DNA from: a virus
Lineage: Duplodnaviria > Heunggongvirae > Uroviricota > Caudoviricetes
Direction: 5' to 3' (one strand)
DNA: 33,807 bases
IMG/VR virus record: IMGVR_UViG_2695420701_000007
Span: 1-33,807 of that record
The notes beneath the pieces are model-generated. The model was not told where the DNA came from. It worked only from the letters and a program-made list of their open reading frames with translations, and ran no database searches. The translations under genes were made by a program, and so were the position numbers. This document shows, one piece after another, positions 13,946-33,807 of this stretch. The first letter of the stretch is position 1. Every line of letters starts with the position of its first letter.

Positions 13946-14102
13946 TTCATTACCGCTTTTTGATGTATCTGGCGGTATTATTGCGGCTGTTTTCGCGGGT
14001 TTCATTCGTTCTGAATCCGGGCTTTTCGTATATGATTTTATGTGCGAAAAATGCCAAAATTTAACGATATTTCAGAGTGTTATTGCTCTTTATGATGGGC
14101 GA

Positions 14103-16978: not shown

Positions 16979-17040
16979 CCCGAAAAAGACTATATTACCC
17001 CTGCAACCGGTCAGATTGTGGGGGGGTTATGGCGGGTGTG

Positions 17041-17304: not shown

Positions 17305-17386
17305 GTGCCATTCTGTGGGGCGGTGGATCTTCCGCTTCCTCGCCCTGACAGACTCACCGCTATGCGGTTCGCTAATCAGGGGCTGC

Positions 17387-17403
17387 GGCGAGCGGTTTTG
17401 CAC
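17387..17403. other. Candidate cos (cohesive end) site
   Basis: GGCGAGCGGTTTTGCAC resembles the P2 cos core GGCGAGGCGGGGAAAGCAC as I recall it; lies in a convergent intergenic region downstream of Q and ogr. Confidence 0.3.
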
Positions 17404-17438
17404 AATATGATCCAGTACAGCAACAGAGAGATTTAGTT

Positions 17439-17957
17439 TTATTCGAAGCTGGCAAGAATCTGTTCTCGAACAGAAGATTTCATCGTTAACCCACGATCCA
17501 GGAAAAATTGGAAATGCATTAAGGCTTGTTGTTTGTGGATAAATCTCCTGCGCACAGCCTCCTGGAGTAGCCCTCCGTGGCGGGCGGCTTTTACACCGCG
17601 TTCCGCACACGTTTTATAAACCGCATTATCCGCCGAAAGACATGTTGCATCATGTATTCTCGCGTTAACAACGCAGCTTATGTCCGCATACTTCAATGCT
17701 CTCCTGCGATTTTTTATCTCAGCCATTTCAATAAAATGTTCAGGTTCGTAATCATTGGTGAAATTGTATGGAAGTTGCAGGCGTGTAAGCTGTTCCTGAA
17801 CATCAAGATTGTATTTAGCTTTTAGTTCCTCGCAGACATAGGGGTCAATCCACACACCACCCGGGTAAATTTGCCAGATAAGATCTAAGCATTTACCTTC
17901 GTAAAAATCAGACAGTACATTCGTATCGATAACACATCTGGGGCATTCAAACGGCAT
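17439..17957 (-). CDS. PIN-like domain protein (DUF4411-like), putative toxin/nuclease
   Basis: Listed ORF 17439-17990; probable start MPFECPRCVIDTNVLSDFYEG (complement of 17955-17957), overlapping the upstream gene stop by about 11 nt. VIDTNVL is the typical N-terminal strand-1 motif of PIN domains; region is AT-rich. Confidence 0.55.
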   Translation of the reverse strand: MPFECPRCVIDTNVLSDFYEGKCLDLIWQIYPGGVWIDPYVCEELKAKYNLDVQEQLTRLQLPYNFTNDYEPEHFIEMAEIKNRRRALKYADISCVVNARIHDATCLSADNAVYKTCAERGVKAARHGGLLQEAVRRRFIHKQQALMHFQFFLDRGLTMKSSVREQILASFE

Positions 17958-19092: not shown

Positions 19093-19376
19093 ACGTCACC
19101 TGAATTTAACAATGGTGGCTCTTATGGGTTTAGATTGGTTAATTATTACTAACATTATGAATGGAGAGTTGCAAAAATCATAATTAAATTATGCAAATTT
19201 CATGGAGTGTGATGTGGTGTGGGTTCACACTCTCTGCTGATTACATCCAGGGCGGTTTCCGCCCTGGCTCTGCTTACTCAGGAAATAACGCCCGGATATT
19301 TCCGGCCATCTGACTGGTTATCTGTGCGGTTGGTACTGGCTGTGGCGTGGGCGTTCTGCCCTGTTTGCGCCCTGAC

Positions 19377-19745
19377 CTATGCAATCCGCGCCGGATTCAT
19401 ATGGCACATGTTGTGTCTTTTTTCTGCATGGTAATGAGCTTTGTTCTCGTTAAACGGTAACACCTCATTCAGCCCGGCACTTCTGAAATCAGCGTGTAAT
19501 TGCTCCAGTACTGTTTCTTTATCAGCACCCGTTAATTCGAGATAATCCCAGAGGCTGGCGCATAAACCACAGTTTCGCGAAAATATTCTGCCTGGATTTG
19601 CTCCGTTTTTCAGCCACAAATCATAAGTAATATAAAATCCGTGAAGTTGTTGCCTGATACTTTCTTTGATTTCCTGCGCTGGCACGGTGCCTGGTAATTG
19701 CTCTCTCATTGTGAATCTCTCCTGTGTTGTGCCGGTCTGGCGCAT
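19377..19745 (-). CDS. Hypothetical protein
   Basis: 122 aa ORF in the early operon downstream of replication gene A; start uncertain (alternative Met at MREQLPG). Confidence 0.35.
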   Translation of the reverse strand: MRQTGTTQERFTMREQLPGTVPAQEIKESIRQQLHGFYITYDLWLKNGANPGRIFSRNCGLCASLWDYLELTGADKETVLEQLHADFRSAGLNEVLPFNENKAHYHAEKRHNMCHMNPARIA

Positions 19746-20137
19746 GAATGGCGCTGCGGTAAAAAGACCCTTTGCGTCAGTGCGGCCTTGCGATTGACGG
19801 CAGTCAGCGTTCTGGCCAGCGCGACATTGTGTTTGCGGGTCTGCTCTTCGTGGTACTTCTGCATGATTTTCCCGGCCGGCGTGAGTGGTTCCGGCTCTTC
19901 CGGTGAACGGCGCGGACGAACGGCAACTATCCAGCTCTGATATTCACTGCCCGGTCGCCTGTTAAGTATGTCGGTGATGGTGGTTGTGGTGGTGCGATCG
20001 GGGCTGGCCACCGTGATTTCCAGTTCGTCCCCGGGCTGTGGTCTTGTGGCTACGCCTCTCAGTGTCATGGCTGGCGTGCGCTGGCGCATAACGGCGTCGA
20101 ACTGCTGACGCTGCATGGTGCAGTGAAATCGCGTCAT
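19706..20137 (-). CDS. Hypothetical protein downstream of replication gene A
   Basis: 143 aa ORF overlapping the end of gene A; Thr/Pro/Arg-rich. Confidence 0.35.
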   Translation of the reverse strand: MTRFHCTMQRQQFDAVMRQRTPAMTLRGVATRPQPGDELEITVASPDRTTTTTITDILNRRPGSEYQSWIVAVRPRRSPEEPEPLTPAGKIMQKYHEEQTRKHNVALARTLTAVNRKAALTQRVFLPQRHSCARPAQHRRDSQ

Positions 20138-22626
20138 GATCTTACCTCCGCTGACGACTCCTGTGTGATGACGATGCGGCGGGTTGTGGCGCTCCAGTAC
20201 GCGATACGCCCGTCGCCCGGGCGAACGCGGGCACCGTTACTCACGGAAATAATGGCTGCGTCAGGCAGCTGCACACCCAGCGCGTCGAGTTCGCGGGTGA
20301 TTTGTGCGATGGTCGTGGTGTCGACAGGCACGACAACCTCCACCCTGACAGGGGTGTCTGATGCTGGTCTGGTGTTATTTTGTCCGGTATCCGTGGCGGG
20401 CGGCTGATTTTTAAGCTGTCTGATGAGCTGTTTCCGCTCGTAATGGCTCAATCCCTGCAACCATTGTGTCAGGCCATTTTCCGGAAGTGTCAGACGTTTC
20501 TCCTGCTGCCTGTTTTCTGTGCCGGTTCCGGCTGTTTTTTCGTCGCCGGGACAGTTATTGCCACGAGTCCAAGGGGCGGCAGGGCCGCCCTGAAGGTCAA
20601 AACCATTTTCGCGGGCGCTGTCTTCCGCTTCCGGTTTACGTCTTACCAGCTTCCAGTTGTCCGGATGCGTGCACACACGGGAGGATTCCCCGATGAGTGG
20701 CGACCAGATCCCGTAAATCTGTACGCTCTGTTCGCCGTAATCGTTCAGCTCATCTGCGAGGTCGTAGGCGGTGCGAATCAGGTAGTCCTTACGTGGAACA
20801 AGTACGCCGCCCTGTTTCTCTATGTAGGTGGCAAAACACCCGGCATCAGCGGCAGCAAGAACCGCATCCATTGCGTCATCCTTCAGCCGTTGCGGGCCTT
20901 CCGGGTTGCGTGCCATCTGGCTGGCAAGGCGGCGCAGTTCACGCCATACCTGACGGGAGGGGATGCCAAAGAACTGGAACTGGCGGACCCGGTGAAGGCG
21001 CGCCCAGCCGATGGCGCGTTCCACGCTTTCTGCCATCGTCTTTCCTGATTCGTCGTCGATGCGCGGTTTGCCTGTTTTCGGGTCAATGCCATCCACGGCG
21101 TGGCTGTCCAGGTTCTTTCCGATGTAGGTGGCGATATAGCTGGTCGGCGTACCTTTCGAACCGTCGACGTACTCCGCCTTAAAGCGCGGAGTTATGTCAT
21201 CGCCCAGCTCGTGGCGGTCTTCACGAATGGCAATATCGCGGGCGATGGTCACGATGCTGTCGATTTCTTCAGGATGTGCAAAGACCATCATATGCCAGTG
21301 CACCGTGCCGTCATGGTGAGGCTCCACCGTGCGGATGCCATACCAGCGCAGGCCCTTGCGGTCCAGTCTGTTACGAACGGCTTTAAAAAAAGTGTTAACC
21401 AGATAATCACTGGAATCGCGCATGGTAGCCCCGTTCCATTTGGGGTTCGGATGACCGTTCTCCGTTGTTGCGTGGTATTTTGACGGGCAGGTGACAGTCA
21501 GAAACACCGCTTTGTCGCCACGGGATTCGGCTATAAGTTCCGCCCCTTTCATGGTGGCCATCATTTCTGCCTTACGGTGAACCGGGTTACTTACTCCCGC
21601 GTAATACACTGTCTCGAGATCAATCGTGAACCCGTCTTCATTTTCCAGCATGAAACTTTTCAGGAAATCGCGTGTTTTCTCGCGCTGTGCGCGAAACTCA
21701 CTTAACGCGTCCTGGCTCAGATAGGGCGATGTTTTTCTGGAAACCAGACAGGCGGCGCGGAGTTGTTCTTCTCTCCACTCGCAACGTAAAAGCCACAGTT
21801 TGCGTTTCCACCAGTCCGCACAGGTCAGGCGAAGGATTGCGCCCGGCAGCAGTTCCGTGTCCGGTTCGTTCTTGCGGTCTTTGTCTGTTGTCAGCGCGTC
21901 ATAATGTGGAGGCATGGCGTGCAGGTGTAGCGCCATGCGGGCCAGCATCTGATACGCCTTCAGTGCCACCTCCATGGTCAGCTCGCCATCTCTGGCACCG
22001 AAACCATCACAGAGTGTTTCAAAGGAGCTGCTGAACATTGCCGCCGTCATGGTGCCCAGCGTCTGTATCTGGTGCTTGTTAAGCTGCGGCAGGTACAGCA
22101 AATCGTCCAGGCGTTCGCGTCCGGCAAGGGCGCGATAACCCGGTGTCAGCCAGCGGCTGTCGGTGCGGTCCAGTCGTTCGAATATTTTGCGCAGGGTTCC
22201 GCGCGCGTAGCCCTCTGATGGTCGACTCTTTTTGCCTTTCTGGCGGTCAGATTCCTGCTTCTTACGTAAAAAAGAGAGGCGGCGGCTCAGAGGTTCACGC
22301 AGATAAACAGGTAGCGCCTTTAGTGTGACAAATGCACGGGCCACCGGGTCTTGTTCTGTTGCCTGGCGCTTGCTGATGATGCTTTGTGTTACCTTCTCGC
22401 GCCGTTCGTCCTCATCGAGGGCGACCATGAGTTTTTTACCCATGTCTGACTGCACAAAAAAGGCTTCTTCTTCCGCCTCCCTGACTTCCTGTGCTTTCAG
22501 ATCTGCTTCCTGGTAGTAGCGTATGGCCTGTTGCAACGGGGTTTCAGGCGTAGGCTGATACTTCGCAAATGTGGCTGGGTCAATGGCCTGCCGTGGTTCG
22601 TTCCAGTCCCAGGTAAATTCACTCAT
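20134..22626 (-). CDS. A: Replication initiation endonuclease, P2 gpA-like (rolling-circle Rep)
   Basis: Listed ORF 20134-22653 (839 aa); probable start MSEFTWDWNEP. Size and position (end of early operon) match P2 gene A; contains His/Tyr-rich central region (GTVHWHMMVFAHPEE ... TPTSYIATYIGKN) compatible with HUH-type endonuclease motifs. Confidence 0.8.
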   Translation of the reverse strand: MSEFTWDWNEPRQAIDPATFAKYQPTPETPLQQAIRYYQEADLKAQEVREAEEEAFFVQSDMGKKLMVALDEDERREKVTQSIISKRQATEQDPVARAFVTLKALPVYLREPLSRRLSFLRKKQESDRQKGKKSRPSEGYARGTLRKIFERLDRTDSRWLTPGYRALAGRERLDDLLYLPQLNKHQIQTLGTMTAAMFSSSFETLCDGFGARDGELTMEVALKAYQMLARMALHLHAMPPHYDALTTDKDRKNEPDTELLPGAILRLTCADWWKRKLWLLRCEWREEQLRAACLVSRKTSPYLSQDALSEFRAQREKTRDFLKSFMLENEDGFTIDLETVYYAGVSNPVHRKAEMMATMKGAELIAESRGDKAVFLTVTCPSKYHATTENGHPNPKWNGATMRDSSDYLVNTFFKAVRNRLDRKGLRWYGIRTVEPHHDGTVHWHMMVFAHPEEIDSIVTIARDIAIREDRHELGDDITPRFKAEYVDGSKGTPTSYIATYIGKNLDSHAVDGIDPKTGKPRIDDESGKTMAESVERAIGWARLHRVRQFQFFGIPSRQVWRELRRLASQMARNPEGPQRLKDDAMDAVLAAADAGCFATYIEKQGGVLVPRKDYLIRTAYDLADELNDYGEQSVQIYGIWSPLIGESSRVCTHPDNWKLVRRKPEAEDSARENGFDLQGGPAAPWTRGNNCPGDEKTAGTGTENRQQEKRLTLPENGLTQWLQGLSHYERKQLIRQLKNQPPATDTGQNNTRPASDTPVRVEVVVPVDTTTIAQITRELDALGVQLPDAAIISVSNGARVRPGDGRIAYWSATTRRIVITQESSAEVRS

Positions 22627-23012
22627 GGTTGACACCCTGTCACGCGTTGCCATTCCTGCGAGAAGAGGGCAGAAAGACGGTTAAACTCAGTGGTGTATTC
22701 ACTCAGCGAGGCACACCCGCCAGCGGTGCGATGCGCCAGCATTGCTGCAAACACGGAGGCAGGGGAGTTGTAATACGCCAGCAGGGAGTCGCCGTGTGGT
22801 GTCAGGGTGTACAGGGCCAGACCGTGTGGTGTGAAGTCCACGCGGTAACAGTCGTCCACGATGAAATAAAGGGGGCCTGCGTTCTCTGGTTTTGTGGTGC
22901 GAGCCTGGCTGGCGCGGGCACGGAGATAGAAATCAAACATTGCCTGAAGTTTTGGAGCCAGACGGGTGTCCTGTGTGCGCACCCATTTTACGAAGTCATG
23001 ACGGTCAATCAT
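22623..23012 (-). CDS. Hypothetical protein upstream of gene A
   Basis: 129 aa ORF, stop adjacent to gene A start. Confidence 0.4.
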   Translation of the reverse strand: MIDRHDFVKWVRTQDTRLAPKLQAMFDFYLRARASQARTTKPENAGPLYFIVDDCYRVDFTPHGLALYTLTPHGDSLLAYYNSPASVFAAMLAHRTAGGCASLSEYTTEFNRLSALFSQEWQRVTGCQP

Positions 23013-23084
23013 GCTGCACCTCGCTTTGTTAAAGATGTGCGAAGGCCTCCCGCCGCAAGGTGCAGGAAAGGCCCGGAACAGGAA

Positions 23085-23315
23085 TTAATGGAGTTTGTTT
23101 TGCTGCTGGATGAGCTGTTGAAGCTCGTGCAGATCATCCGCCAGATAGCTGAATACAGCGGCGCAGTAGCTGTCTGACAGCGCGTGGCTGCGTTCATGCA
23201 GCATATTGATGTGCATGATTTGCGCGACGCGTGATGCGCGGAAAAGTCTGCGGTTGATTTCAGTCCGGATGTGACGACGCGCAGCGTATGCGCGCTGTTG
23301 TTTGCGGTTTGCCAT
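23085..23315 (-). CDS. Small basic hypothetical protein
   Basis: 76 aa, Arg-rich N-terminus (MANRKQQRAYAARRHIRTEINRRLF), follows a terminator-containing non-coding region. Confidence 0.35.
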   Translation of the reverse strand: MANRKQQRAYAARRHIRTEINRRLFRASRVAQIMHINMLHERSHALSDSYCAAVFSYLADDLHELQQLIQQQNKLH

Positions 23316-23492
23316 GATGTGGCCTCTATGTGTGTAAGTTTTGAAAACTCACCATCCAGAGCTGCGAAACTGTGGGTGGCGAGACGTACGAGGTTCGCAG
23401 TACCGGCAAACATAGAACCCGGCCCGACCGAAGTCGGCCCCGTACGCCCCACCATAATTCGTGTGCGAAAAAGATGTGGCGATACAGTACGC

Positions 23493-23515
23493 ACAAAAAA
23501 ACCGCTGGCGCGGTT
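23493..23515 (-). terminator. Rho-independent terminator candidate (minus strand)
   Basis: Minus-strand reading AACCGCGCCAGCGGTTTTTTTGTG: GC-rich hairpin (ACCGC/GCGGT) followed by a T7 run, inside a roughly 320-bp non-coding stretch. Confidence 0.5.
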
Positions 23516-23635
23516 GTGCGCTATGTTTGTCAGCGGGCTGCGAAACCCGGCACCCGTTTTATGAGGTGCAGCGGAAATGTAACCTGACTGATTGCGACAT
23601 GGCAAGCGGTTTTTTTGTGTGTGCATGATGATCAC

Positions 23636-24190
23636 TCAGTTCGGCAGCAGTTCGTACAACAGGGCGTCGGCGGCGGTCCGGCGGTTGTAGAGGTGAAACG
23701 CCGTATCATCGCTGATGTGCATTTGCATCGTGATGTTGATGTGTTTCGCGATTATGCAGAACGTCATGTTGCGTCTGTCGCGTAGCTCCGTAACCAGCTC
23801 AGCCAGACGATCGCTGTATCTGGTGCAATGGTGGCTCTCGCCGCATTTCTTAAGGCTGTAACCCCGTTTATGCAGTGTGTACCTCACGGTGCACTCGCTG
23901 CGTCCCACCTTCCGGGCCAGTTCCCGTGCGGTTTTTGCGTGACGGTTTTTGGTGAGAAAGGCGATGGCTTCTGCACTCAGCGGTGCTTTTCTCTTGCGAC
24001 CAATCAACCCGCGATTACGTAAAAAAAGAATCCGGTGCATCACTGCGCTGCGGGTTCGCTGAAGTCGTTCAGCCATTTGCCATGTGCTGTGATCCTGATA
24101 AAGCGAGATAAGCAGTTCGTCTTCCTGTTGTGTCCAGGCACTGACGTGCTTCGGTGCTTTACCTGGTCCCCCCATTGGTTTCAGAAACAT
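23636..24190 (-). CDS. Putative DNA-binding regulator with two HTH-like repeats
   Basis: 184 aa; two helix-turn-helix-like segments (STWQMAERLQRTRSAVMHRI and TARELARKVGRSECTVRYTL). Confidence 0.4.
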   Translation of the reverse strand: MFLKPMGGPGKAPKHVSAWTQQEDELLISLYQDHSTWQMAERLQRTRSAVMHRILFLRNRGLIGRKRKAPLSAEAIAFLTKNRHAKTARELARKVGRSECTVRYTLHKRGYSLKKCGESHHCTRYSDRLAELVTELRDRRNMTFCIIAKHINITMQMHISDDTAFHLYNRRTAADALLYELLPN

Positions 24191-24492
24191 GATTTGGCCT
24201 CCTTACGGCTTTCTGGTGTGGAGATGATCAGATTCAGTTTCAGGGCGGTGGCGTGTTCCTCTTTTGCCCCCGGCGAGTCCTCCCAGCCATCCAGCAGGTA
24301 AATCACATCGGCACAGTGCAGCATGGCGCTCCCGATAAGCATGTAGTCCCTGTATCTCAGCCCGTCAGGGAGTGTTGCGGGGTTGAGTACGGTATGACCC
24401 TGCATCCTCAGGCGGGTCGCCGTCATGGTGAAGGCGGTGCGGTTGAAATCAGGCTTCCCCGTCATGGGGCCAGCGATATAGATAACGGCCAT
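24181..24492 (-). CDS. Nucleoside 2-deoxyribosyltransferase-like protein (DUF4406-like)
   Basis: 103 aa starting MAVIYIAGPMTGKPDFNRTAF, the typical N-terminus of the DUF4406 / deoxyribosyltransferase-like fold found in phages. Confidence 0.5.
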   Translation of the reverse strand: MAVIYIAGPMTGKPDFNRTAFTMTATRLRMQGHTVLNPATLPDGLRYRDYMLIGSAMLHCADVIYLLDGWEDSPGAKEEHATALKLNLIISTPESRKEAKSCF

Positions 24493-25451
24493 TACATGAT
24501 CTCCGTGGTGGGGTGTGGAGCGGGAATGTGAGACAGCCAGCCCGCATTGACATCCCGGATCCGGACCTCACGGGCTGGCGGATAAACACCAATCACCTCT
24601 TTTGCCTGCTGGCGTGCACTGCTGCTGGCAGCCACAGCGCGGCGAACGCTCAGGGTGTGCAGCTCAAACGAGGAATAGATCTGCCGGGTTTCGGAGGTGT
24701 CACTGTTGGAGACCACCGGGTGGATACCGTAACGCTGCCAGGCGTTCATCATGAGCGCCGCAAGGTCACGGTGGTCTTTGCGGGTAAATGCCCGGCCGTT
24801 GTAGTGAGTGAACGCCTCTTTACCGTCCGGTGGCAGGTAGGGCGGATCGCAGTAAATGGCGATATCGCCGTGCACCGAAGAAAAACGGCGGATCTCAGCC
24901 GGCATTGTGAAGGCTGTACGGAAATCCGCGTGAATAAAGCGGGTCCGGGTCTCGTTGGCTTTATCAGCAAACAGGCGCATTTCCTGGCAGGGGAAATAAG
25001 GCATGCGGTGTTTGCCGAATGGCACATTGAATTCGCCTTTTTGGTTGGTGCGGTACAGGCCGTTAAAGCAATGGCGGTTCAGGTACAGAAACAGCGCTGC
25101 CCATTCCAGGGATTCGCCGCGTAATCTGTCGGTGGCCAGCGCGATGGTGTTAAATGCCCCGCGATGGCGTTTGTAGGCTTCCGGTGTGCCGCCATCCTTA
25201 AAGAGCGACCATGCACGATCCATTAATTCCGTGGTGTTGGTCGTCAGTTGCTGGTAGAAATTAATCAGCGCGGGGTTGCTGTCACACAATACGTAATAGT
25301 CATAATCCGTGTTCATGAAGACCGAGCCGCCGCCCACGAAGGGTTCGATCAGGCAGGCGGCTTTGGGTAAATATTCGCGCAGCTGCGGCATGATACTGAA
25401 TTTGCCGCCCGCCCATTTGAGCGGTGAGCGCTGGTTCAGAATACCTTTCAT
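24492..25451 (-). CDS. dam: DNA adenine methyltransferase (Dam-like, D12 class N6-A MTase)
   Basis: 319 aa; N-terminal LKWAGGK motif, catalytic DPPY motif (IAIYCDPPYLPP), FxGxG-like SAM region (EPFVGGGSV). Confidence 0.8.
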   Translation of the reverse strand: MKGILNQRSPLKWAGGKFSIMPQLREYLPKAACLIEPFVGGGSVFMNTDYDYYVLCDSNPALINFYQQLTTNTTELMDRAWSLFKDGGTPEAYKRHRGAFNTIALATDRLRGESLEWAALFLYLNRHCFNGLYRTNQKGEFNVPFGKHRMPYFPCQEMRLFADKANETRTRFIHADFRTAFTMPAEIRRFSSVHGDIAIYCDPPYLPPDGKEAFTHYNGRAFTRKDHRDLAALMMNAWQRYGIHPVVSNSDTSETRQIYSSFELHTLSVRRAVAASSSARQQAKEVIGVYPPAREVRIRDVNAGWLSHIPAPHPTTEIM

Positions 25452-25687
25452 GCGTCACTCTCCGGTTTTTTCCCGCGTGTGAATGGGGTGGGTTCGAGCG
25501 TGATTTCGCGCCGGATATTGCGCACGCGTAACTGCGAGCCGTCGTTCAGGCAGATCACGCGTTCATCATCCGGGCCGGTGATGTTGTCCAGCAGCGAACG
25601 GTCAGGGTTGATGTGGCGTTCCCTGATGCGGTAATGGTCGCCGGTGACAGTGCTCTCGCACAGAATGCAGATAATGGCGGGTTTCAT
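25448..25687 (-). CDS. Small hypothetical protein
   Basis: 79 aa ORF with CxxC (CILCES) at the N-terminus; ends overlap neighbours. Confidence 0.35.
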   Translation of the reverse strand: MKPAIICILCESTVTGDHYRIRERHINPDRSLLDNITGPDDERVICLNDGSQLRVRNIRREITLEPTPFTRGKKPESDA

Positions 25688-26214
25688 GCGTCAGCCCTCC
25701 ACTGCGACAACATCACGATGTGGGTGAAGGTGTACCGCCAGTAGGTTTCGTTTTTGGGGTTTTCTATGTGGCAGGTGTCCCGCATGAATGCAAAGAGTTC
25801 GTCGCGGGGATGGTTTTCAGGGTTAAAGCCGTCCCTGACGGCCACTTCATCGGTTATCTGGCGGCCCTGTATTACACCGATATCGGCAATGAAGGCCACG
25901 GCGAACGGCACGGTTTCGCCGTTCTTGTTTTCTGTGACCAGATGAATGTTGTCATACTGCCGGTAGGGCTGTCTTTTCAGGAGTCCGGCAAAGTCTGATG
26001 CGCGGGTAAATGTGGTTCCCTCCTCAAAAACCAGGGTACCGCCGGCGCTGTAATCGGGAAGAACGATGTTGCGGGTCAGGGTGTCTTCATGAAAATATTC
26101 TGCTGACTCCTGGCCCGCCTGGTAGCAATCAAACCCCGTCGGGCGAAGGGATGTGGTCTTGCGTCCGTTGCGGAATGCGTCAATAAAGCAGGGCTTAAAT
26201 TTCATCTGTAACAT
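25684..26214 (-). CDS. ASCH/PUA-like domain protein (putative)
   Basis: 176 aa; N-terminus MKFKPCFIDAFRNGRKTTSLRP resembles the start of ASCH-domain proteins. Confidence 0.4.
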   Translation of the reverse strand: MLQMKFKPCFIDAFRNGRKTTSLRPTGFDCYQAGQESAEYFHEDTLTRNIVLPDYSAGGTLVFEEGTTFTRASDFAGLLKRQPYRQYDNIHLVTENKNGETVPFAVAFIADIGVIQGRQITDEVAVRDGFNPENHPRDELFAFMRDTCHIENPKNETYWRYTFTHIVMLSQWRADA

Positions 26215-26278
26215 CGTCTTATCCTCTTCACGTATTCGTTATGGTTAAGCAGTACCCATGTCCGGCCTTCGTCCAGAC

Positions 26279-26455
26279 TTAACAGCCGGTAACGGTACAT
26301 GACGTTGATGACGCGGGCGGTACCCGCTCCAGCCGTCGCACGTGTGACCGGTCCCCCTTCAGCAGGCGACGGTATGCCGCCCTTGCTGCCCGCTCCGGCT
26401 TTCCCCCTGGCTTCATCCGGTTTTTGCGGTGTCGCGCAGGGATAATCAGCTTCAT
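26279..26455 (-). CDS. Small basic hypothetical protein (not in supplied ORF track)
   Basis: 58 codons by hand translation (MKLIIPARHRKNRMKPGGKPERAARAAYRRLLKGDRSHVRRLERVPPASSTSCTVTGC); its ATG overlaps the stop of the upstream gene (ATGA), suggesting translational coupling. Confidence 0.35.
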   Translation of the reverse strand: MKLIIPARHRKNRMKPGGKPERAARAAYRRLLKGDRSHVRRLERVPPASSTSCTVTGC

Positions 26456-26874
26456 TTGTCGGGGGTTATTTCCAGGTTTCTGGTCTTTACCCAGCGGTCT
26501 TCCTCGAAGGGGGAATCGAAACGGACGAAAACCCGGTCAATGGCGGGGCTACTGGTGCGGGTGTCAACGACCGTTCCGCGTTGCTGCGGACTGTTTTTCA
26601 GACATACGCGGGTCCCTTTGATGAATGTGGTGTGGCAGGTGTGTTCAGCACTTTCCTTTGCCGGGTCAGCTGCTGTCTGAAGGGTGGCAAGCTGATTTCT
26701 CAGACAGGTGTTTTCCTGTACCACCTGTTCAATTGCGTCTGCGGCGATAAGGTGAGGCTCCACTGACAGCACCATCATCGGGTTGTCAGTGTCAGCCATC
26801 ATTGCGGCGTAGTTGCGTAAAAACATTGCGCCCGCAAGGGCTTTATCTTTGAGGGTGAGTGTCGGATTAATCAT
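26452..26874 (-). CDS. Hypothetical protein
   Basis: 140 aa ORF in the early operon. Confidence 0.4.
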   Translation of the reverse strand: MINPTLTLKDKALAGAMFLRNYAAMMADTDNPMMVLSVEPHLIAADAIEQVVQENTCLRNQLATLQTAADPAKESAEHTCHTTFIKGTRVCLKNSPQQRGTVVDTRTSSPAIDRVFVRFDSPFEEDRWVKTRNLEITPDK

Positions 26875-26970
26875 TTTTATTTCCCTTATTCAGATTGTGC
26901 GAATCCCGCCGCGTGAGCGGTGTATTAACGAAACCGGTTAATTAACTAAAGAGGCGGCGTGCTTTACGCT

Positions 26971-27156
26971 CTACGTCTTCTTTGTGCTGAATGAATGCGT
27001 TGTATGCATCCCGTTTTTTTTCTGGCGACGTCTGTCGCGTATTTCCCGCCATGTATCAATAAGTGTCAGTATGCAGATGGCAAAAAACATTGCGGCTGCA
27101 ATCAGTGTGATAACAAATAACGACTCCGGTACACTGAATGAATAACTGAAATTCAT
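26971..27156 (-). CDS. Small single-pass membrane protein
   Basis: 61 aa; hydrophobic helix LFVITLIAAAMFFAICILTLI followed by basic tail RDRRRQKKNG. Confidence 0.4.
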   Translation of the reverse strand: MNFSYSFSVPESLFVITLIAAAMFFAICILTLIDTWREIRDRRRQKKNGMHTTHSFSTKKT

Positions 27157-27161
27157 CGTGA

Positions 27162-27404
27162 TTACTCCGTAATTATTGCGGGTTCGGGAACCATGCCATC
27201 CGTTAATTGTTTCGCCATCCGGTTAAGTTCTTTAAGGTCCTCGCTGGCTCCCGTATCTTTTGAACAAAACAGGGTGTTGCGGACGCTGAATATTCCGCAC
27301 TTCATTACTTCGAAGTGTGTTTTTCTGGCGCGGGGATTAATTTCGTTATCGAAGTAATATCCCTGCAGAAATTCGTTTACCTGTTCTGCTGTGTGTTTTC
27401 TCAT
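27162..27404 (-). CDS. Hypothetical protein
   Basis: 80 aa ORF, 5 nt upstream of the small membrane protein gene. Confidence 0.4.
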   Translation of the reverse strand: MRKHTAEQVNEFLQGYYFDNEINPRARKTHFEVMKCGIFSVRNTLFCSKDTGASEDLKELNRMAKQLTDGMVPEPAIITE

Positions 27405-27445
27405 AACGGAGTCCTCGTTAAAAATAACCGGTGATAAACCCGCTG

Positions 27446-27796
27446 TTATAACTCAGCCTGTTTAATAAAATTTTCTCCGTAAAGAAGGCGATCAACTGTG
27501 CGTAGCGCTTCGTACAACGTGAAATCCTGCCCGAACTGATTGTCGCCGCAGCTCAGAGCAAAAATGCGGTTTCCGGTAAACGGATTGCGCGGGTATTTGT
27601 GGACCACTATTCCAGCTTTCTCAATCATCCAGGTATGCTCGCCAATTTGTTTTACTGTATGGCCATCTGGTGTTGCGTGCGTCTCGTTCAGGTTATAGCG
27701 ACTGTTACTACGTGATGCACTGGTAGCGACGTGGTGTACATGGCGTTCTACGCCATTACGAAATTTGGAGTATGGATTATTAGTGTTTTTTTTCAT
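27446..27796 (-). CDS. Hypothetical protein
   Basis: 116 aa ORF in the early operon. Confidence 0.4.
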   Translation of the reverse strand: MKKNTNNPYSKFRNGVERHVHHVATSASRSNSRYNLNETHATPDGHTVKQIGEHTWMIEKAGIVVHKYPRNPFTGNRIFALSCGDNQFGQDFTLYEALRTVDRLLYGENFIKQAEL

Positions 27797-27817
27797 GATG
27801 ATGCTCTGTTCATTGTT

Positions 27818-28021
27818 TTAGCTGTTAGCCAAAGCGTCTTTTAACATCGCCACAAGGTTTACTTCAGGCTTTTCCATTTTGGCGCGTTTGGGGCGGATAA
27901 TAATTCGACCGTCAGCCAACATCTTTTTGCATGTATTAAGAGGGATACCTGTTATCTCTGCATATTTCTGCAGGGATACATAGGGGGCATTCACATTGAT
28001 ATTGATGGTTATACCTGACAT
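27818..28021 (-). CDS. Cox-like HTH regulator / excisionase-type protein
   Basis: 67 aa; APYVSLQKYAEITGIPLNTCKKMLADGRIIIRP follows the pattern of P2 Cox N-terminus (IPYQEFAKLIGKSTGAVRRMIDKGKLPVI). Confidence 0.5.
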   Translation of the reverse strand: MSGITININVNAPYVSLQKYAEITGIPLNTCKKMLADGRIIIRPKRAKMEKPEVNLVAMLKDALANS

Positions 28022-28037
28022 CCCACTAACCTCCTGA

Positions 28038-28244
28038 TCAGGAAGATTTGTTTTGTTCTTTCTGGGTTAGCTCTAGGCCGCGAAGGAAGATCATGCGCGC
28101 CATGTTAGAGGATGAGCGTTGTTCTTTAGCTGCCATCTCATCAATAAAGGCGCGCTCCTCCGCTGACAGTCGAAGTGCCAGTCTTTGACCTGTGGCGGTG
28201 TTACGCGGAATGCGTGACTTGGTGTCGTGACTAACTTGATTCAT
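28038..28244 (-). CDS. Ribbon-helix-helix-like small regulator; first gene of the early operon (Cro/Apl position)
   Basis: 68 aa; RLALRLSAEERAFIDEMA...SSNMARMIF resembles an RHH (Arc/CopG-type) fold; divergent from the repressor gene. Confidence 0.45.
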   Translation of the reverse strand: MNQVSHDTKSRIPRNTATGQRLALRLSAEERAFIDEMAAKEQRSSSNMARMIFLRGLELTQKEQNKSS

Positions 28245-28303
28245 AGTGGTACATTGTGATCATCTAATGGTTCGTGAAATTACTTTAGGGAACAAAACTT
28301 CCT
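28245..28303. promoter_or_regulatory. Divergent promoter/operator region of the lysis-lysogeny switch
   Basis: 59-bp gap between divergent repressor (plus) and early-operon (minus) starts; contains the TGATCA palindrome (with a GATC Dam site) in ACATTGTGATCATCTAATGG. Confidence 0.5.
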
Positions 28304-28717
28304 ATGTCAACAGAAAAAGAGGAACTAAGCGTCATTATTGGCCGTCGATTACGGGAGGAGCGAGAGAAAATTGGCATGACCCAAGATGATATGGCGTCGA
28401 TTTTTGAAGTTTCTACAAAGACTTGGGGGAAGTATGAAAGAGGGGTGACTACACCGGATGCAGTTATGTTGAATCTCTTGGGAGGGCGCTGCGGAGTAGA
28501 TGTCTATTACATACTTTCTGGTAGTCGTGCACATGGCATCCCTAATGCTACTGAAGATGAGATTGAGCTAATTAAAATATATCGTTCTGCACCTTTGGCT
28601 GTTAAGGCGGCAGCTTTGGCAGCCTTGACTGCTGGTAGTTTGTCTCTAGGTACAATAAGAGCTTCTGGCAAAGGCCATCGTATTGCAGGTCGTGACTATA
28701 ACGAAACGAAGGGTTAG
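28304..28717 (+). CDS. Immunity repressor, XRE-family HTH (CI/C-like)
   Basis: 137 aa; N-terminal HTH (GMTQDDMASIFEVSTKTWGKYERG); divergent from the early operon and co-oriented with integrase. Confidence 0.7.
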   Translation: MSTEKEELSVIIGRRLREEREKIGMTQDDMASIFEVSTKTWGKYERGVTTPDAVMLNLLGGRCGVDVYYILSGSRAHGIPNATEDEIELIKIYRSAPLAVKAAALAALTAGSLSLGTIRASGKGHRIAGRDYNETKG

Positions 28718-28735
28718 TGATAGTAGGGAGGTGAC

Positions 28736-29383
28736 ATGGCTGTCAACTCAAACGGTTCAGACAATCGCGTTTCTGGGCGTGATTACCACGAAAAGAACAT
28801 TCGGATAGAGCGGTATGATGGTCGTCATACAGTCAACATTGCAATCCCTTCCTGTGGGGCTGATGAGCGCCCATTAGTCAAGGCTCAGCGCCATCAACTG
28901 AAGTTGTTGGTTGATAAGATTGTTGATGTCAGCAAGGAAGAATCGTTTGTTGTCTGGCGTAAACTTCATGCTGAAATCGGTGTTGATAGCATCGATAAGA
29001 TGACGGTGAATCAGTATCCAACCGCAATTAGCTTCCTCAATGCGATGCTTGACCGACATAAAGAGCGCGACGCCTGCAAATCACTTGTAAGTCTCCTTCT
29101 TCGCAATAGTGAGAATAATGAAGCTAGACAAAAACTTCTTCGATATTGTCATATCAATTTTGGAACAGGGCGCTTAAATGATCTTACTCGCTCTCAGCTT
29201 CAGATGGCTCTTTCATGGTTAGATCAGCAAACAACAGACTGTGAAAATAATTTGCCCTCAGATAATTCTAAATTTGTCGATAAACAATCGCGATTAGTGT
29301 TTCAGCAAATAATTAAAACATATCCAAAAGAAATGGGGGTATGTTTTGTTATTGGTGTTTTATTAGGCATGATTCTTTTCTGA
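28736..29383 (+). CDS. Hypothetical C-terminally membrane-anchored protein (cargo between repressor and integrase)
   Basis: 215 aa; single C-terminal hydrophobic helix GVCFVIGVLLGMILF; AT-rich relative to the phage core; co-transcribed orientation with repressor. Confidence 0.5.
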   Translation: MAVNSNGSDNRVSGRDYHEKNIRIERYDGRHTVNIAIPSCGADERPLVKAQRHQLKLLVDKIVDVSKEESFVVWRKLHAEIGVDSIDKMTVNQYPTAISFLNAMLDRHKERDACKSLVSLLLRNSENNEARQKLLRYCHINFGTGRLNDLTRSQLQMALSWLDQQTTDCENNLPSDNSKFVDKQSRLVFQQIIKTYPKEMGVCFVIGVLLGMILF

Positions 29384-29588
29384 TAGATCGTTGTTGGAGA
29401 AATCAATTATGGCAAAAGCTTGCTTTAACGACTTTGAAAGAAATAAAAAAGATAAATTAAGCGAGCTGACAAAGGTGAGATAAGGGGGAGTGCAACTAGT
29501 AATGTAAAAAATGGTGTGAGTTACTTGTCATAGTCTTAAAGTGAAGTAATTCCTTGTTCACTAGGAAGTTCAAAGAGGTAAATGAATT

Positions 29589-29846
29589 ATGGTAACTAAT
29601 CCGCAAATTCCATTGACTGGCTTATATGTATCCAAAGTTAATCCATCTAATCGTATAGTTGTTACTGATGTTCATATTGTTTAGGATGATGACGATGAGC
29701 CAGGAGAGCTTCCTTTCTATTTGGTTACTTTTGTAAATGAGGGGGATGAGGATGATATGTTGGCTCCTTCTTGGGAGCTAGATCCTGAGGAATGGGAGCA
29801 GTTAGTTGATGAAGAGCGCTTTATGCGCGTGGAGCAACCATCTTAA
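29589..29846 (+). pseudogene. Small acidic ORF interrupted by an in-frame TAG (amber) codon
   Basis: Good SD (AGAGG) then MVTNPQIPLTGLYVSKVNPSNRIVVTDVHIV - TAG at 29682-29684 - continuing in the same frame DDDDEPGELPFYLVTFVNEGDEDDMLAPSWELDPEEWEQLVDEERFMRVEQPS to TAA at 29844-29846. Confidence 0.4.
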
Positions 29847-29872
29847 TTTATCCTTGGTGTGCACTTTTTAAG

Positions 29873-30874
29873 ATGTCTGTTCGTAAATTACCTACTGGCA
29901 AATGGCTCTGTGAATGCTACCCCTACGGAGCAGCAGGAAAACGCATTCGTAAACAGTTTGTTACTAAGGGTGAGGCGCTCTCTTATGAGCGCCGTTTAAT
30001 GAACAGTAATTTGGGGAGCGAGTTTCAGGATGGTTCTGGCCCCCGCCTTTCCGAGTTGGTTGCTCGCTGGTTTGAGATGTACGGTAAGACACTGTCTTCC
30101 GGTGAAGAGCGAAGGGCTAAACTTGAGGCGATTTGCTCCCGGTTGGGGGATCCGCTTGCTTCTCAATTTGATAAAAACATGTTTGCCACCTACAGGGAAC
30201 GGCGATTATCAGGTGAATGGAATCCAAAGGGGAAGAGGAAGCTTAGCGAAGCAACCGTTAATCGTGAGCAGTCATATCTACATGCTGTTTTTGCCGAACT
30301 GAAGCGCCTTGGGGAGTGGTCTGGTGAAAACCCCTTAACTGGCATTCGCAAATTTCGTGAGGAAGAAAAGGAACTGGCGTTTCTGTATGTAGATGAGATT
30401 GAACGCCTTCTGATTGCGTGTGATGAGTCACGGAATAAAGATTTGGGGGTTGTTGTCCGTATTGGGCTTGCGACTGGTGCTCGGTGGAGTGAAGCAGAAG
30501 GATTAAAGCAATCTCAAGTACTGCCCGGTCGAATCACATTTGTTAAAACTAAAGGAAAGAAGAACCGCACTGTACCGATTTCACCTCAATTGCAGGCTAT
30601 GCTTCCTAAAAAACGAGGAGCGCTATTTTCACCATGTTATGAGGCTTTTGACGCTGCAATTAAGAGAGCGAAGATCGAGCTTCCTGATGGGCAATTAACT
30701 CATGTGCTACGTCACACGTTTGCCAGTCATTTTATGATGCGGGGCGGAAATATTCTTGTGTTGCAAAAAATACTGGGGCATAGCGATATAAAAATGACTA
30801 TGCGTTATGCGCATTTTGCTCCAGGTCATTTAGAGGCTGCTGTTGAATTGAACCCTTTTGACAATAGAGGGTAA
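29873..30874 (+). CDS. int: Tyrosine integrase (phage integrase family)
   Basis: 333 aa; C-terminal catalytic region HVLRHTFASHFMMRGGNILVLQKILGHSDIKMTMRYAHF (HxxR ... Y); adjacent to the tRNA-derived att core. Confidence 0.85.
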   Translation: MSVRKLPTGKWLCECYPYGAAGKRIRKQFVTKGEALSYERRLMNSNLGSEFQDGSGPRLSELVARWFEMYGKTLSSGEERRAKLEAICSRLGDPLASQFDKNMFATYRERRLSGEWNPKGKRKLSEATVNREQSYLHAVFAELKRLGEWSGENPLTGIRKFREEEKELAFLYVDEIERLLIACDESRNKDLGVVVRIGLATGARWSEAEGLKQSQVLPGRITFVKTKGKKNRTVPISPQLQAMLPKKRGALFSPCYEAFDAAIKRAKIELPDGQLTHVLRHTFASHFMMRGGNILVLQKILGHSDIKMTMRYAHFAPGHLEAAVELNPFDNRG

Positions 30875-30981
30875 AAAGTGGCGATAAAAAGTGACAATAG
30901 ATTCAAATGGCGTTGTATAGAGCTATTTTCAAAGTTAATAAAATCATAAGGTTATGATTTATAAATGGTGGTTGATAGTTT

Positions 30982-31035
30982 TTAAAATCCCTCGGCGTTC
31001 GCGCTGTGCGGGTTCAAGTCCCGCTCCGGGTACCA
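30982..31035 (+). tRNA. leuZ: 3' fragment of tRNA-Leu (leuZ-type): phage att core / prophage-host junction
   Basis: TTTAAAATCCCTCGGCGTTCGCGCTGTGCGGGTTCAAGTCCCGCTCCGGGTACCA matches the anticodon-loop-to-CCA part of E. coli tRNA-Leu(UAA) from memory; the sequence upstream does not complete the 5' acceptor stem or D arm, so this is a partial copy. Confidence 0.7.
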
Positions 31036-31080
31036 TGGGAAAGATAAGAATAAAATCAAAGTAATAAGCAGTGTCGTGAA

Positions 31081-31103
31081 ACCACCTTCGGGTGGTTTTT
31101 TTG
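31081..31103 (+). terminator. Rho-independent terminator downstream of the tRNA
   Basis: ACCACCTTCGGGTGGTTTTTTTG: 6-bp GC-rich stem, TTCG tetraloop, T7 run. Confidence 0.75.
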
Positions 31104-31230
31104 TGCCTGCAACTTGTCGTTACACCCTCCTTAATTTTTAATCACCGGCAAAGCCACTCAAAAAGTATCTCTGATACGGACCGGCATGTAAGATAGGTGC
31201 TGGCGAGTTGAGATCCACAAGGAAAAGCGT

Positions 31231-31896
31231 ATGAAAACGGGACCGTTAAACGAAAGTGAGTTGGAATGGCTGGACGATATTCTGACCAAATACAACACTA
31301 ACCACGCCATCCTTGATGTGGCGGAGCTGGACGGTTTATTGACGGCGGTGTTGAGTTCTCCGCAAGAGATTGAACCGGAACAGTGGCTGGTTGCCGTGTG
31401 GGGTGGGGCTGACTATGTGCCGCGCTGGGCGTCAGAGAAAGAGATGACGCGCTTTATGAACCTGGCTTTTCAACATATGGCCGATACCGCAGAGCGTCTG
31501 AACGAATTCCCGGAGCAGTTTGAGCCGTTATTCGGCTTGCGAGAAGTTGATGGCAGCGAGCTGACGATTGTTGAGGAGTGGTGCTTTGGCTATATGCGGG
31601 GCGTGGCACTTTCTGACTGGTCAACGTTGCCCGATTCGTTAAAACCAGCGCTGGAGGCGATTGCGCTGCACGGTACTGAGGAAAACTTCGAGCGGGTAGA
31701 AAAGATGTCGCCAGAAGCGTTTGAAGAGAGCGTAGATGCCATTCGACTGGCGGCGCTTGATCTACATGCGTACTGGATGGCGCATCCGCAGGAAAAAGCT
31801 GTTCAGCAACCGATCAAAGCAGAAGAGAAACCGGGGCGTAACGATCCTTGCCCGTGCGGTAGTGGTAAGAAATTTAAGCAGTGCTGCCTGCATTAA
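31231..31896 (+). CDS. yecA: YecA-like SEC-C motif protein (UPF0149)
   Basis: 221 aa ending in the SEC-C zinc motif [15 protein letters not shown]; host gene following the leuZ locus. Confidence 0.8.
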
Positions 31897-31957
31897 GAGG
31901 CCAAATTGGGTGTCAGCGTTAATTCTGGCACCCAATAAGGAATTTGAGGCTATCTGA

Positions 31958-33169
31958 TCACCCCACTTCTGGTAACAACCCTGCCGCAATCAAAAATTGC
32001 ACGCCAATCACAGCAATACCACAGAGAAACACCACCACCAGCGCCGGACGACCACCTTTGACCCGGTAACCCGCCTGAGGATTGTGCTTTCTGCTTTGCC
32101 AGGTCAACAGCGAAGGGATAATCAATGCCAGTACCGCCAGCGCCACACCGGCGTAACCCAGCGCCATCACAAATCCTCGTGGATAAAACAGTGCAAACGC
32201 CAACGGCGGCAGAAAGGTAATTGCACCAGTTTGCAACCGTCCACCAACGGTATTTGAACGCTGAAATAAATCAGCCAGATAATCAAATAAGCCTAACGCA
32301 ACGCCGAGAAATGACGTGGCGAGGGCTAAATCAGCAAATAAATGCACTGCCAGCTCAACATGCGGAGAGGCCACCATTTCGCGTAACGCCTGTAACAGCC
32401 CGTTTAATCCAGCATGATTAGCCAGCAATCCCATAAAGGTTGTTGAATCAATGCTGCCAAGCGTTGCCACCTGCCAGAAAATATATGCCACCAGGGGGAT
32501 CGCACTACCGGTTATAAACACCCAGCGTAGCTTACGAACGTTGCCATCCATATAGCTGACAATACTCGGCACGCTACCGTGAAAACCAAATGAGGTAAAA
32601 ATCACCGGGATTGCTGACAGAGCCAGCCCCTGTTGCAACGGCAGGGTTAAAAGATTCACTTTGTGAATATGCGGTAGCAGCAATACCAGCATCACCACCA
32701 GAAAAATAATTTTGGCGCTGAACAGAAAACGGTTAAATAAATCGACCAGCGATGTTCCAACACAAACCACGCCACCGGCAACAAAAGTGAACAACAGCAC
32801 GCCAGCGGTTGCCGACATTGAAATACCTGTCCAGTCGCTGATGCTGGAGGCCAACAATTCACCGACACCGCTGATGTATGCCGCAGTCAGAGCATACATT
32901 AAGAACATCATACTGAAGCCCGTCAGCCATTGACCGTAGCGTCCCAGATAGCGTTTTGCCAGCGTGCCCAGACCGGTATCTGCCGGAACATGCTGGTACA
33001 CCTCCAGCAGTAATAGCGCCGTGTAGCACATCAACGCCCAAAGCCCAATCAACAAGATTAACGTAACGCTAAAACCAACACCGGCCGCAGCCAGCGGCAT
33101 TGCCAGCATGCCTGCGCCAATTGTGGTTCCCGCCACGATAAAAACACTTCCCAGGGTTCTGTTTTTCAC
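31958..33169 (-). CDS. tyrP: Tyrosine-specific transport protein (aromatic amino acid permease family)
   Basis: 403 aa polytopic membrane protein; size, hydrophobicity profile and synteny with yecA/yecH match E. coli tyrP. Confidence 0.8.
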
Positions 33170-33359
33170 GCTTTCTTCTGTCCTGACGATCTTTATGAGT
33201 GATATCTGCGGCGCAGGTTAAGGCATAACGGCTGCTTCGTCAAACCGACGTTACATATAGTGTAAATATAAATGTACAATAAAAAGCATTCAGTCCTGCG
33301 CTGGCGCAAAGTCTTCATAAGCGGCAATCGCTACGCTAGGCTTTTTTTGAGGAGGAACG

Positions 33360-33599
33360 ATGGACTCTATTCACGGTCATGAAGTGTTAAATATGATGAT
33401 TGAATCAGGCGAGCAATATACGCATGCCAGTCTGGAAGCTGCGATTAAAGCGCGTTTTGGTGAACAGGCACGTTTTCACACCTGCTCGGCAGAAGGGATG
33501 ACAGCGGGAGAGCTGGTAGCGTTTCTGGCAGCAAAAGGCAAATTTATACCTTCGAAAGACGGTTTTTCGACCGATCAGAGTAAGATTTGCCGTCACTGA
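33360..33599 (+). CDS. yecH: YecH-like small metal-binding protein (DUF2492)
   Basis: 79 aa with CSAEGM ... KICRH; synteny between tyrP and ftnA. Confidence 0.7.
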   Translation: MDSIHGHEVLNMMIESGEQYTHASLEAAIKARFGEQARFHTCSAEGMTAGELVAFLAAKGKFIPSKDGFSTDQSKICRH

Positions 33600-33635
33600 T
33601 TTGAAACGGCGGCAGTAAACCTGCCGCCGGAGAGC

Positions 33636-33711
33636 ATTAGTTTTGTGTGTCGAGGGTAGAGAGTTCTTTGTCGATAAAATACAGACCTTCGCCGCTTTTG
33701 CCTGCCAGGCT
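33636..33711 (-). pseudogene. ftnA: 3' fragment of ferritin gene ftnA, truncated by IS10 insertion
   Basis: Minus-strand translation SLAGKSGEGLYFIDKELSTLDTQN-stop matches the C-terminus of E. coli FtnA; upstream codons are replaced by IS10 end sequence. Confidence 0.7.
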
Positions 33712-33807
33712 CTGATGAATCCCCTAATGATTTTGGTAAAAATCATTAAGTTAAGGTGGATACACATCTTGTCATATGATCAAATGGTTTCGCGAAAAAT
33801 CAATAAT
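33712..33807 (+). mobile_element. IS10 (Tn10-type) outside end, partial; extends beyond the window
   Basis: CTGATGAATCCCCTAATGATTTTGGTAAAAATCATTAAGTTAAGGTGGATACACATCTTGTCATATGATCAAATGGTTTCGCGAAAAATCAATAAT matches the IS10 outside terminus as I recall it (terminal inverted repeat, pIN promoter region with its GATC site). Confidence 0.75.

Follow-up and report, generated by a model that had tools for sequence, protein, structure and literature searches.

In a 33,807-nucleotide stretch of caudoviricete DNA (IMG/VR record IMGVR_UViG_2695420701_000007, positions 1 to 33,807; hereafter 'the window'), a phage integrase gene, int, is followed by short repeats and then by the 3′ part of a tRNA-Leu gene. 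This arrangement raises the question of whether an integrated prophage meets its host here and, if so, which of the repeats would be recognized by the integrase (Int). The original prediction took the locus for a prophage–host junction, the tRNA fragment for the core of the attachment (att) site and the repeats for possible arm-type Int sites. Positions 30875–31101 of the window very probably represent the attR site of a Peduoviridae (P2/186/HP1-family) prophage lying in leuZ, the gene for tRNA-Leu(UAA), with an Int module of the HP1/186 type. This assignment is built on observed sequence identities, on the relationships among attL, attR and attB, on the family assignment of Int, and on motif matches together with their conservation.

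The prophage–host junction in leuZ

The DNA to the left of position 30981 is of phage origin, carrying int, Cox-like and CI-like genes and P2-family structural genes, and the DNA to the right is collinear with the leuZ–3′ETS–yecA–tyrP segment of Escherichia coli K-12, in agreement with the predicted junction. The order in the empty site of K-12 is pgsA–glyW–cysT–leuZ–3′ETS-leuZ–yecA–tyrP; in the window, yecA (31231–31896, + strand; open reading frame list and RefSeq annotation of the matching region) is the first host gene past the junction. The displaced 3′ part of the host leuZ occupies 30981–31035 (+ strand), 55 nucleotides reaching from the anticodon loop to the CCA end, which are 100% identical to positions 33–87 of K-12 leuZ and are single-copy in the window. 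That only this part of the tRNA gene is present, as had been proposed, is borne out by ARAGORN, which found 0 tRNA genes over the whole window, and by covariance-model scanning with Rfam, which gave no tRNA at the gathering score in the window and none at E ≤ 10 in 30700–31300; a complete tRNA at this place had been named beforehand as the contrary outcome. The UAA anticodon lies at position 35 of intact leuZ (ARAGORN), so the identity with the host starts at nucleotide 1 of the 7-nucleotide anticodon loop, TTTAAAA.

Alignment of attB (K-12), attL (RMDEC332 and O103 WL1467) and attR (window) delimits a block of 121 bp, 30981–31101, that is common to all three. It consists of the 55 nucleotides of leuZ and the 3′ETS-leuZ trailer including its terminator, the host identity running 66 bp beyond the CCA. 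The original core was thus correctly placed on the leuZ fragment and drawn too short: the shared sequence measures 121 bp, not 55, and continues through 3′ETS-leuZ and the terminator to 31101. 3′ETS-leuZ is annotated in K-12 as a non-coding RNA (b4759) of 67 nucleotides directly after leuZ. The host copy in the window, with its intrinsic terminator, lies at 31036–31102 (+ strand), with a hairpin at 31078–31099 and a T-tract that extends to 31102, one position past the end of the block. At attL, the intact leuZ is succeeded by these same 66–67 nucleotides and then by phage DNA. A pattern scan for terminators did not flag the leuZ terminator, which has been described as Rho-independent (PMC6191717); folding shows the hairpin, whose stem probably takes up part of the T-run and so hid it from the scan.

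The window starts within a tail-fibre gene, so the left end of the prophage lies outside it, and a search allowing up to 3 mismatches found no second copy of the core within the window. The other prophage end was therefore read in relatives. The closest complete genomes, RMDEC332, RMDEC364, VL46 and CFSAN029787 (the last presumably an enteroinvasive E. coli), are 98.7% identical to window positions 14000–33711 (19.7 kb). The RMDEC332 prophage is ~38 kb long and carries P2-family genes for portal, terminase, P2-family capsid, Ogr, replication endonuclease, tape measure and baseplate; on its far side lie an intact tRNA-Leu(UAA), tRNA-Cys, tRNA-Gly and pgsA. The 121-bp block is directly repeated, as attR in the window and as attL in RMDEC332 and O103, where the intact tRNA-Leu stands at attL. 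The anticipated pairing of a leuZ fragment at one end with a complete tRNA at the other is therefore seen in the four closest complete genomes, and the second att copy with its complete tRNA is present at the attL of RMDEC332 and O103. By analogy, the left end of the window's source genome would be expected to read P′ arm ending ...CAATGGCGGTAGAGTGGCGATGGTGTGGCGAT, terminator, 3′ETS, intact leuZ, cysT and glyW.

The gene at the phage side of the junction, int (29873–30874, + strand; stop codon TAA at 30872–30874), encodes a 333-residue tyrosine integrase of the HP1/186 type with the Pfam domains Int_N and Phage_integrase. Its product matches the catalytic domain of HP1 integrase (PDB 1AIH) with an E value of 4.6e-75 and is 59–60% identical to the Int proteins of HP1, HP2 and S2, 56% identical to that of 186 and 39% identical to that of P2. 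The catalytic residues R204, H277, R280, H303 and Y312 all fall in invariant alignment columns. P2-like integrases have been divided into a P2 type, with arm repeats tgTGGaCa and the residues Y/D/R in the N-terminal domain, and a 186 type, with arm repeats tgccGCCActt, the residues W/E/Y and a tendency toward tRNA genes (Nilsson and Haggard-Ljungquist, PMC3448106). The N-terminal motif GKWLCECY of the window Int aligns with GKWLAEVY in HP1 and GGWICELY in 186, as against GRYEVDIR in P2; the protein thus has the W/E/Y discriminator residues of the 186 type, not the Y/D/R of P2.

It is extremely unlikely that the tRNA fragment is instead a decayed pseudo-tRNA, or the remnant of a deletion or rearrangement beside a defective island, rather than a product of site-specific integration. 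The fragment is the only part visible in the window, the left end is missing, and the presence of IS600 in related prophages and of IS10 at the window end indicates that rearrangements occur here. The fragment is, however, 100% identical to leuZ and begins exactly at the anticodon loop; related genomes have a direct repeat of the 121-bp block, together with an intact tRNA, at the far end; a layout of int, arm and TTTAAAATCCC is found in at least nine other genera; and int is intact with all catalytic residues, within a full P2-type gene set.

The mobile elements themselves are located as follows. The IS600 insertion, shared by the closest complete-genome prophages, lies at 14263–15419 in the sequence L001 and is lacking at the equivalent place of the window prophage (~19100–19400). 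If CFSAN029787, one of the genomes concerned, is an enteroinvasive E. coli, the window may derive from an EIEC/Shigella-like lineage. The outside end of IS10 (CTGATGAATCCCCTAATGATTTT...) occupies 33714–33807, with RNA-OUT at 33757–33807 (− strand), and the window ends within IS10/Tn10, inserted just past yecH. The closest complete genomes are without IS10, and their match stops at ~33711.

Candidate arm-type and accessory-protein sites between int and leuZ

Candidate Int sites were sought with the GenBank record of phage 186, which lists 'predicted Int arm-type recognition sequences' of consensus YAYCGCCAYTY (RARTGGCGRTR on the other strand), three to the left of attP and two to the right. A position weight matrix was built solely from 186, HP1 and three other relatives, and ranks refer to 67,594 scored positions. 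The best candidate, P1, is AAGTGGCGATA at 30876–30886 (+ strand), which matches the consensus at 11/11 positions and holds rank 3. A further candidate, P2, at 30905–30915 (+ strand), AAATGGCGTTG, matches at 10/11 positions with rank 14 and had escaped the first reading of the sequence.

P1 lies within the tandem imperfect direct repeat that the original prediction had described directly after int (AAAAGTGGCGAT / AAAAGTGACAAT). This repeat is present: TAAAAAGTGGCGA (30872–30884) and TAAAAAGTGACAA (30885–30897) are identical at 11/13 positions, and the pair begins on the int stop codon. It is the sole 13-bp tandem of such quality in the 33.8-kb window, with 0.33 expected from shuffled sequences. 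The proposal that its units are arm sites is supported for the first, whose motif recurs on the other arm. The second unit, AAGTGACAATA at 30889–30899 (+ strand), matches the consensus at 9/11 positions with both mismatches in the GGCG core and has rank 181; it is a degenerate copy (GTGACAAT) and at best a weak Int site. Its offset from the first unit is 13 bp, compared with 11 bp between sites in 186 and HP1; in the closest relatives, the second unit is degenerate in another way and its offset is 14 bp.

The original prediction also proposed two copies of TGACAATAG as Int sites, placing them at 30860–30868 and 30893–30901, one base too high. As a ten-mer, TGACAATAGA, the repeat stands at 30859–30868 and 30892–30901 and is one of two ten-mers repeated within 50 nucleotides in the window, where 1.2 are expected by chance; the repeat alone is thus not significant. 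The 11-mer over the first copy, TTTTGACAATA (30856–30866), scores as background (rank 3,138). This copy belongs to int coding sequence, specifying the conserved C-terminal residues F-D-N-R, and relatives use other nucleotides for the same residues. The pair is not supported as Int sites. The ten-mer was also considered as the mark of a 33-bp duplication, a possibility rejected on inspection, as the two segments do not align outside the 10-mer.

It is accordingly unlikely, though not negligibly so, that both tandem units and both TGACAATAG copies are all functional arm sites of Int. For such a set of sites speak the uniqueness of the 13-bp tandem in the window, the degenerate second unit that the closest relatives also have ~14 bp past the conserved site, and the score of the second unit, which lies within the top 0.3% of matrix scores. 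The second unit is, however, altered at two positions of the TGGCG core that every well-supported site of 186, HP1 and the relatives keeps. The first TGACAATAG copy has its rank among the background and its differently encoded counterparts against it, and about 1.2 such ten-mer pairs would occur per window by chance. P1 and P2 remain the two good candidates on the int side.

Conservation of this arm was assessed by aligning 12 relatives whose Int proteins are 69–93% identical to that of the window, including sequences from Enterobacter, Kosakonia, Buttiauxella, Edwardsiella, Serratia, Pectobacterium, Symbiopectobacterium and Xenorhabdus, and phage 520873. Most of the 12 have TGGC(G/A) at the position aligned with 30876–30886, one (L012) has TGGCT, and the flanks have diverged. 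On the distal arm of RMDEC332, just past the terminator, CAATGGCGGTA-GAGTGGCGATG-GTGTGGCGATA form three same-strand consensus matches at an exact spacing of 11 bp. The distal arm at the O103 attL is ~94% identical; its sites are kept, and the changes of C to A and G to A in the first two 11-mers fit the consensus. At least two consensus-matching direct repeats thus stand on each side of the core, two int-proximal and three distal, the latter as found in related genomes.

Related sequences L009, L010, L013, L014, L015, L006 and L076 carry an arm motif with TGGCAGC instead of TGGCGAT, for example GTGGCAGCaaaATGGCAGCagcATGGCAGC. This suggests that the sequence of the arm sites co-varies with the N-terminal domain of Int across the family. 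Further repeats in the region are AT-rich, present in two copies and not conserved in relatives: an 18-nucleotide repeat (30928–30945 and 30972–30989, 78% identical) and AATAAAATCA.

Between the arm candidates and the core lies a perfect 9-bp palindrome, AAATCATAA-GG-TTATGATTT (30941–30960), which was missed in the original prediction and is a candidate site for integration host factor (IHF) or another accessory protein. It matches the IHF consensus WATCAANNNNTTR at 12/13 positions on both strands, a match to the consensus only. The form ATCATA-N4-TATGAT, with a variable centre, is kept in the relatives from Enterobacter, Kosakonia, Buttiauxella and Edwardsiella, and the 186 record places IHF footprints at the equivalent position.

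Several points weigh against an Int module of this kind. GTGGCGAT is over-represented in the window, with 7 occurrences observed and 1.5 expected, so that a single match means little and the case for arm sites rests on clustering, phasing, orientation and conservation. On the int-proximal arm the sites are 13 and 29 bp apart, unlike the uniform 11-bp spacing in 186 and HP1. The palindrome at 30941–30960 could equally bind a symmetric dimer rather than IHF. The distal arm and attL, finally, were taken from genomes of 98.7–99.8% identity, not from the source genome of the window.

The excess of GTGGCGAT throughout the window would also fit an explanation in which Int does not bind the repeats after int, these being chance AT-rich repeats, part of a weak int terminator or 3′ untranslated region, or binding sites of the Cox-like directionality factor. 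The binding sites of the recombination directionality factor of 186 are likewise direct repeats about one helical turn apart, as indicated in the 186 record and in a published account (PMC7498355). We nevertheless regard this explanation as highly unlikely: the motif equals the 186 arm consensus, and this phage, HP1 and 186 all have it on both arms, always in one orientation; the Apl sites of 186 are found between arm sites and core rather than at the arm's outer edge; and the pattern scan detected no hairpin or T-run between int and the leuZ terminator. Arm sites contacted by Int thus remain the preferred assignment for P1 and P2.

A proposed integration mechanism and its relation to known systems

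The attP site reconstructed from these sequences would comprise, in order, int, a P arm of ~106 bp, the 121-bp host copy (the 55 nucleotides of the leuZ 3′ part and the 67-nucleotide 3′ETS-leuZ trailer with its terminator) and the P′ arm. Int would act as a heterobivalent tyrosine recombinase, its N-terminal domain contacting arm sites of the form RARTGGCGRTR, and its core-binding and catalytic domains working at the anticodon stem-loop. The arm sites used would be the two good int-proximal ones (30876–30886 and 30905–30915) and the three distal ones at 11-bp phasing, outside the window. IHF, at its candidate site at 30941–30960, may bend the P arm, and a Cox-like protein would direct excision. 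Binding by Int, IHF and Cox, as well as catalysis, are here predicted from family membership.

The position of strand exchange is narrowed by a polymorphism. The base equivalent to window position 31049 is C at the RMDEC332 attL and A at attR and in K-12, and attL has six T residues where the others have seven; the right part of the attL block is hence phage-derived, and the exchange falls between 30981 and 31048. It most likely takes place in the 7-nucleotide anticodon loop TTTAAAA (30981–30987, + strand), the first 7 bp of the identity block and the putative overlap region. This placement is suggested by the edge of the identity, by the identical TTTAAAATCCCTC in the HP1 attP, by the 186 annotation and by the attL/attR polymorphism. 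Integration would rebuild the tRNA operon at attL with a phage-borne leuZ 3′ half, trailer and terminator, and would leave the host original promoter-less behind int at attR, with the leuZ terminator now 3′ of int. The rebuilt operon at attL and the displaced host copy at attR follow from the sequences.

The nearest parallels are HP1 and 186. HP1 sites were read from the deposited sequence and its attP feature rather than from published footprints. As in the window, the int gene of HP1 reads toward attP, the core opens with the same TTTAAAATCCCTC from the anticodon loop and stem of tRNA-Leu, the phage integrates in a tRNA-Leu gene, and its attP carries the entire remainder of the tRNA operon. 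Both HP1 arms have TGGCGRT repeats in 11-bp phasing. The int-side arm contains CTGGCGAT-tgg-CTGGCGGT; the distal arm has CTGGCGAC-aaa-GTGGCGGT immediately past the block identical to the host, with a further ATGGCGAT downstream. The HP1 sites were reportedly footprinted by Hakimi and Scocca in 1994, whereas those of the window are candidates from sequence. HP1 differs in its host and in carrying a complete tRNA-Lys in place of the 3′ETS-leuZ trailer and terminator; the P arm measures 106 bp with irregular site spacing in the window and ~175 bp in HP1. HP1 requires IHF and Cox (PMC4111918), and the window has a Cox-like gene and an IHF-like site.

Phage 186 shares with the window the W/E/Y residues in the N-terminal domain of Int, a consensus matched at 11/11 and 10/11 positions, a distribution of three plus two sites over the two arms, and a lysogenic-operon terminator that separates the tRNA 3′ end from the distal arm sites. 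Its record shows IHF sites on both sides of the core and predicts a 7-bp crossover at the edge of the identity block that faces int. It integrates, however, in ileY (tRNA-Ile rather than tRNA-Leu), and its identity block is 36 bp long and starts later in the tRNA, compared with 121 bp from the anticodon loop in the window. The three-site cluster is int-proximal in 186 and int-distal here, and 186 has orf69 between int and attP. P2 belongs to the same family, with int adjoining attP, arm repeats on both sides, and IHF and Cox; it is set apart by the arm consensus tgTGGaCa, the Y/D/R residues of its 39% identical Int, and a 27-bp core that is not in a tRNA gene.

Other elements share the target. 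Sp13 of O157 Sakai is integrated at leuZ (PMC8190617), as are one or more integrative elements in O145:H28 (PMC7067040); Sp13 is compared with the window prophage here by locus only. Escherichia phage 520873 (Xuanwuvirus) shows the same junction with yecA, is identical to the window in the repeat region of the P arm and has an int of 92% identity; its modules for structure and replication differ, and frameshifts interrupt int in the deposited sequence. The unrelated phages mEp390, Fostie and Pectobacterium ZF40 carry the last 56–60 nucleotides of leuZ, annotated as attP in mEp390. Among 5,426 complete E. coli genomes, the int–yecA junction was found in 491 (at ≥80% coverage) and the junction of leuZ with the P′ arm in 643. 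leuZ is thus a known and frequently occupied integration site, to which the window adds a member of the HP1/186-type int/attP family with predicted sites; a literature search found no dedicated description of this attP.

A second layout was observed in L006, L016 and L073 (int ends ~3990; tRNAs 4129–4456), relatives with 76–85% identical Int, where int is convergent with leuZ and borders on the intact tRNA and on three P′ arm repeats phased at 11 bp. In a Kosakonia sequence (L076, 3001–4944) both layouts stand in tandem at one site, and the first int is frameshifted. Among enterobacteria, the leuZ-targeting module occurs in at least nine further genera, with int and attP arranged in two opposite ways. 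For the window prophage, the right boundary is fixed, the integration module is assigned to the HP1/186 type, and coordinates are available for the candidate Int, IHF and crossover sites.

The genes upstream of int are arranged as in 186. A CI-type helix–turn–helix repressor gene (28304–28717, + strand; Pfam HTH_19/HTH_3 and PHROG transcriptional repressor families) opens a lysogenic operon that ends with int, in the strand and order of cI–int in 186, and the sequence from repressor through int to attP mirrors that phage. The presumed recombination directionality factor is encoded on the opposite strand by the Cox-like gene (27818–28021, − strand; PHROG 575 'Cox-like excisionase and repressor', E 1.2e-27). 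A small acidic open reading frame just 5′ of int (29589–29846, + strand) has an in-frame TAG at 29682–29684; RefSeq annotates just the last 41 codons (DUF8087) of the matching frame in a related genome, and the frame may represent a pseudogene or else a shorter gene preceded by a leader. Two RNAs above the Rfam gathering score adjoin in the early region, a C4 antisense RNA (23372–23459, − strand; 81.8 bits) and the Hfq-binding RNA isrK (23495–23569, − strand; 69 bits), resembling an immunity/antirepressor control module of the P1/P7 type within a P2-family prophage.

Carriage of the 3′ETS-leuZ small RNA

The phage carries and substitutes the entire 3′ETS-leuZ and the operon terminator, beyond the tRNA end alone. 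3′ETS-leuZ is a sponge of RyhB and RybB that is released from the glyW–cysT–leuZ precursor; it base-pairs with RyhB, whose level it reduces (PMC6191717). As the whole of 3′ETS-leuZ lies inside the att block, the copy transcribed in lysogens would be the phage-derived one at attL, and the host copy would stay behind int without a promoter. By the junction counts, ~9–12% of complete E. coli genomes would express such a phage-derived sponge. Carriage of 3′ETS-leuZ fits a family habit of carrying the remainder of the operon, HP1 analogously carrying the whole downstream tRNA-Lys. No paper noting a prophage-borne 3′ETS-leuZ was found in a literature search.

The copies differ in places. The phage copy in RMDEC332 (L001 40768–40833, minus strand) has an A-to-C change at the equivalent of 31049 and one T fewer, and the trailer in the O103 lysogen is identical to that of the host. 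The displaced copy in the window has a window-specific C-to-T change at 31062, a position that is C in K-12, RMDEC332 and phage 520873. It falls within the RyhB-pairing AAGCAAT block and turns a G–C pair into G–U (duplexfold −45.8 versus −43.8 kcal/mol).

These allelic differences, the duplication and the absence of a terminator separating int from the trailer are the facts behind a further idea, that lysogeny alters the small-RNA buffering of the host through a phage allele at attL and a second copy behind int at attR. We consider this decidedly unlikely as it stands. If lysogenic read-through from cI through int were processed at attR, extra 3′ETS-leuZ would be produced from a phage promoter. 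Were the idea true, the small-RNA buffering of iron and envelope stress would be coupled to the state of the prophage.

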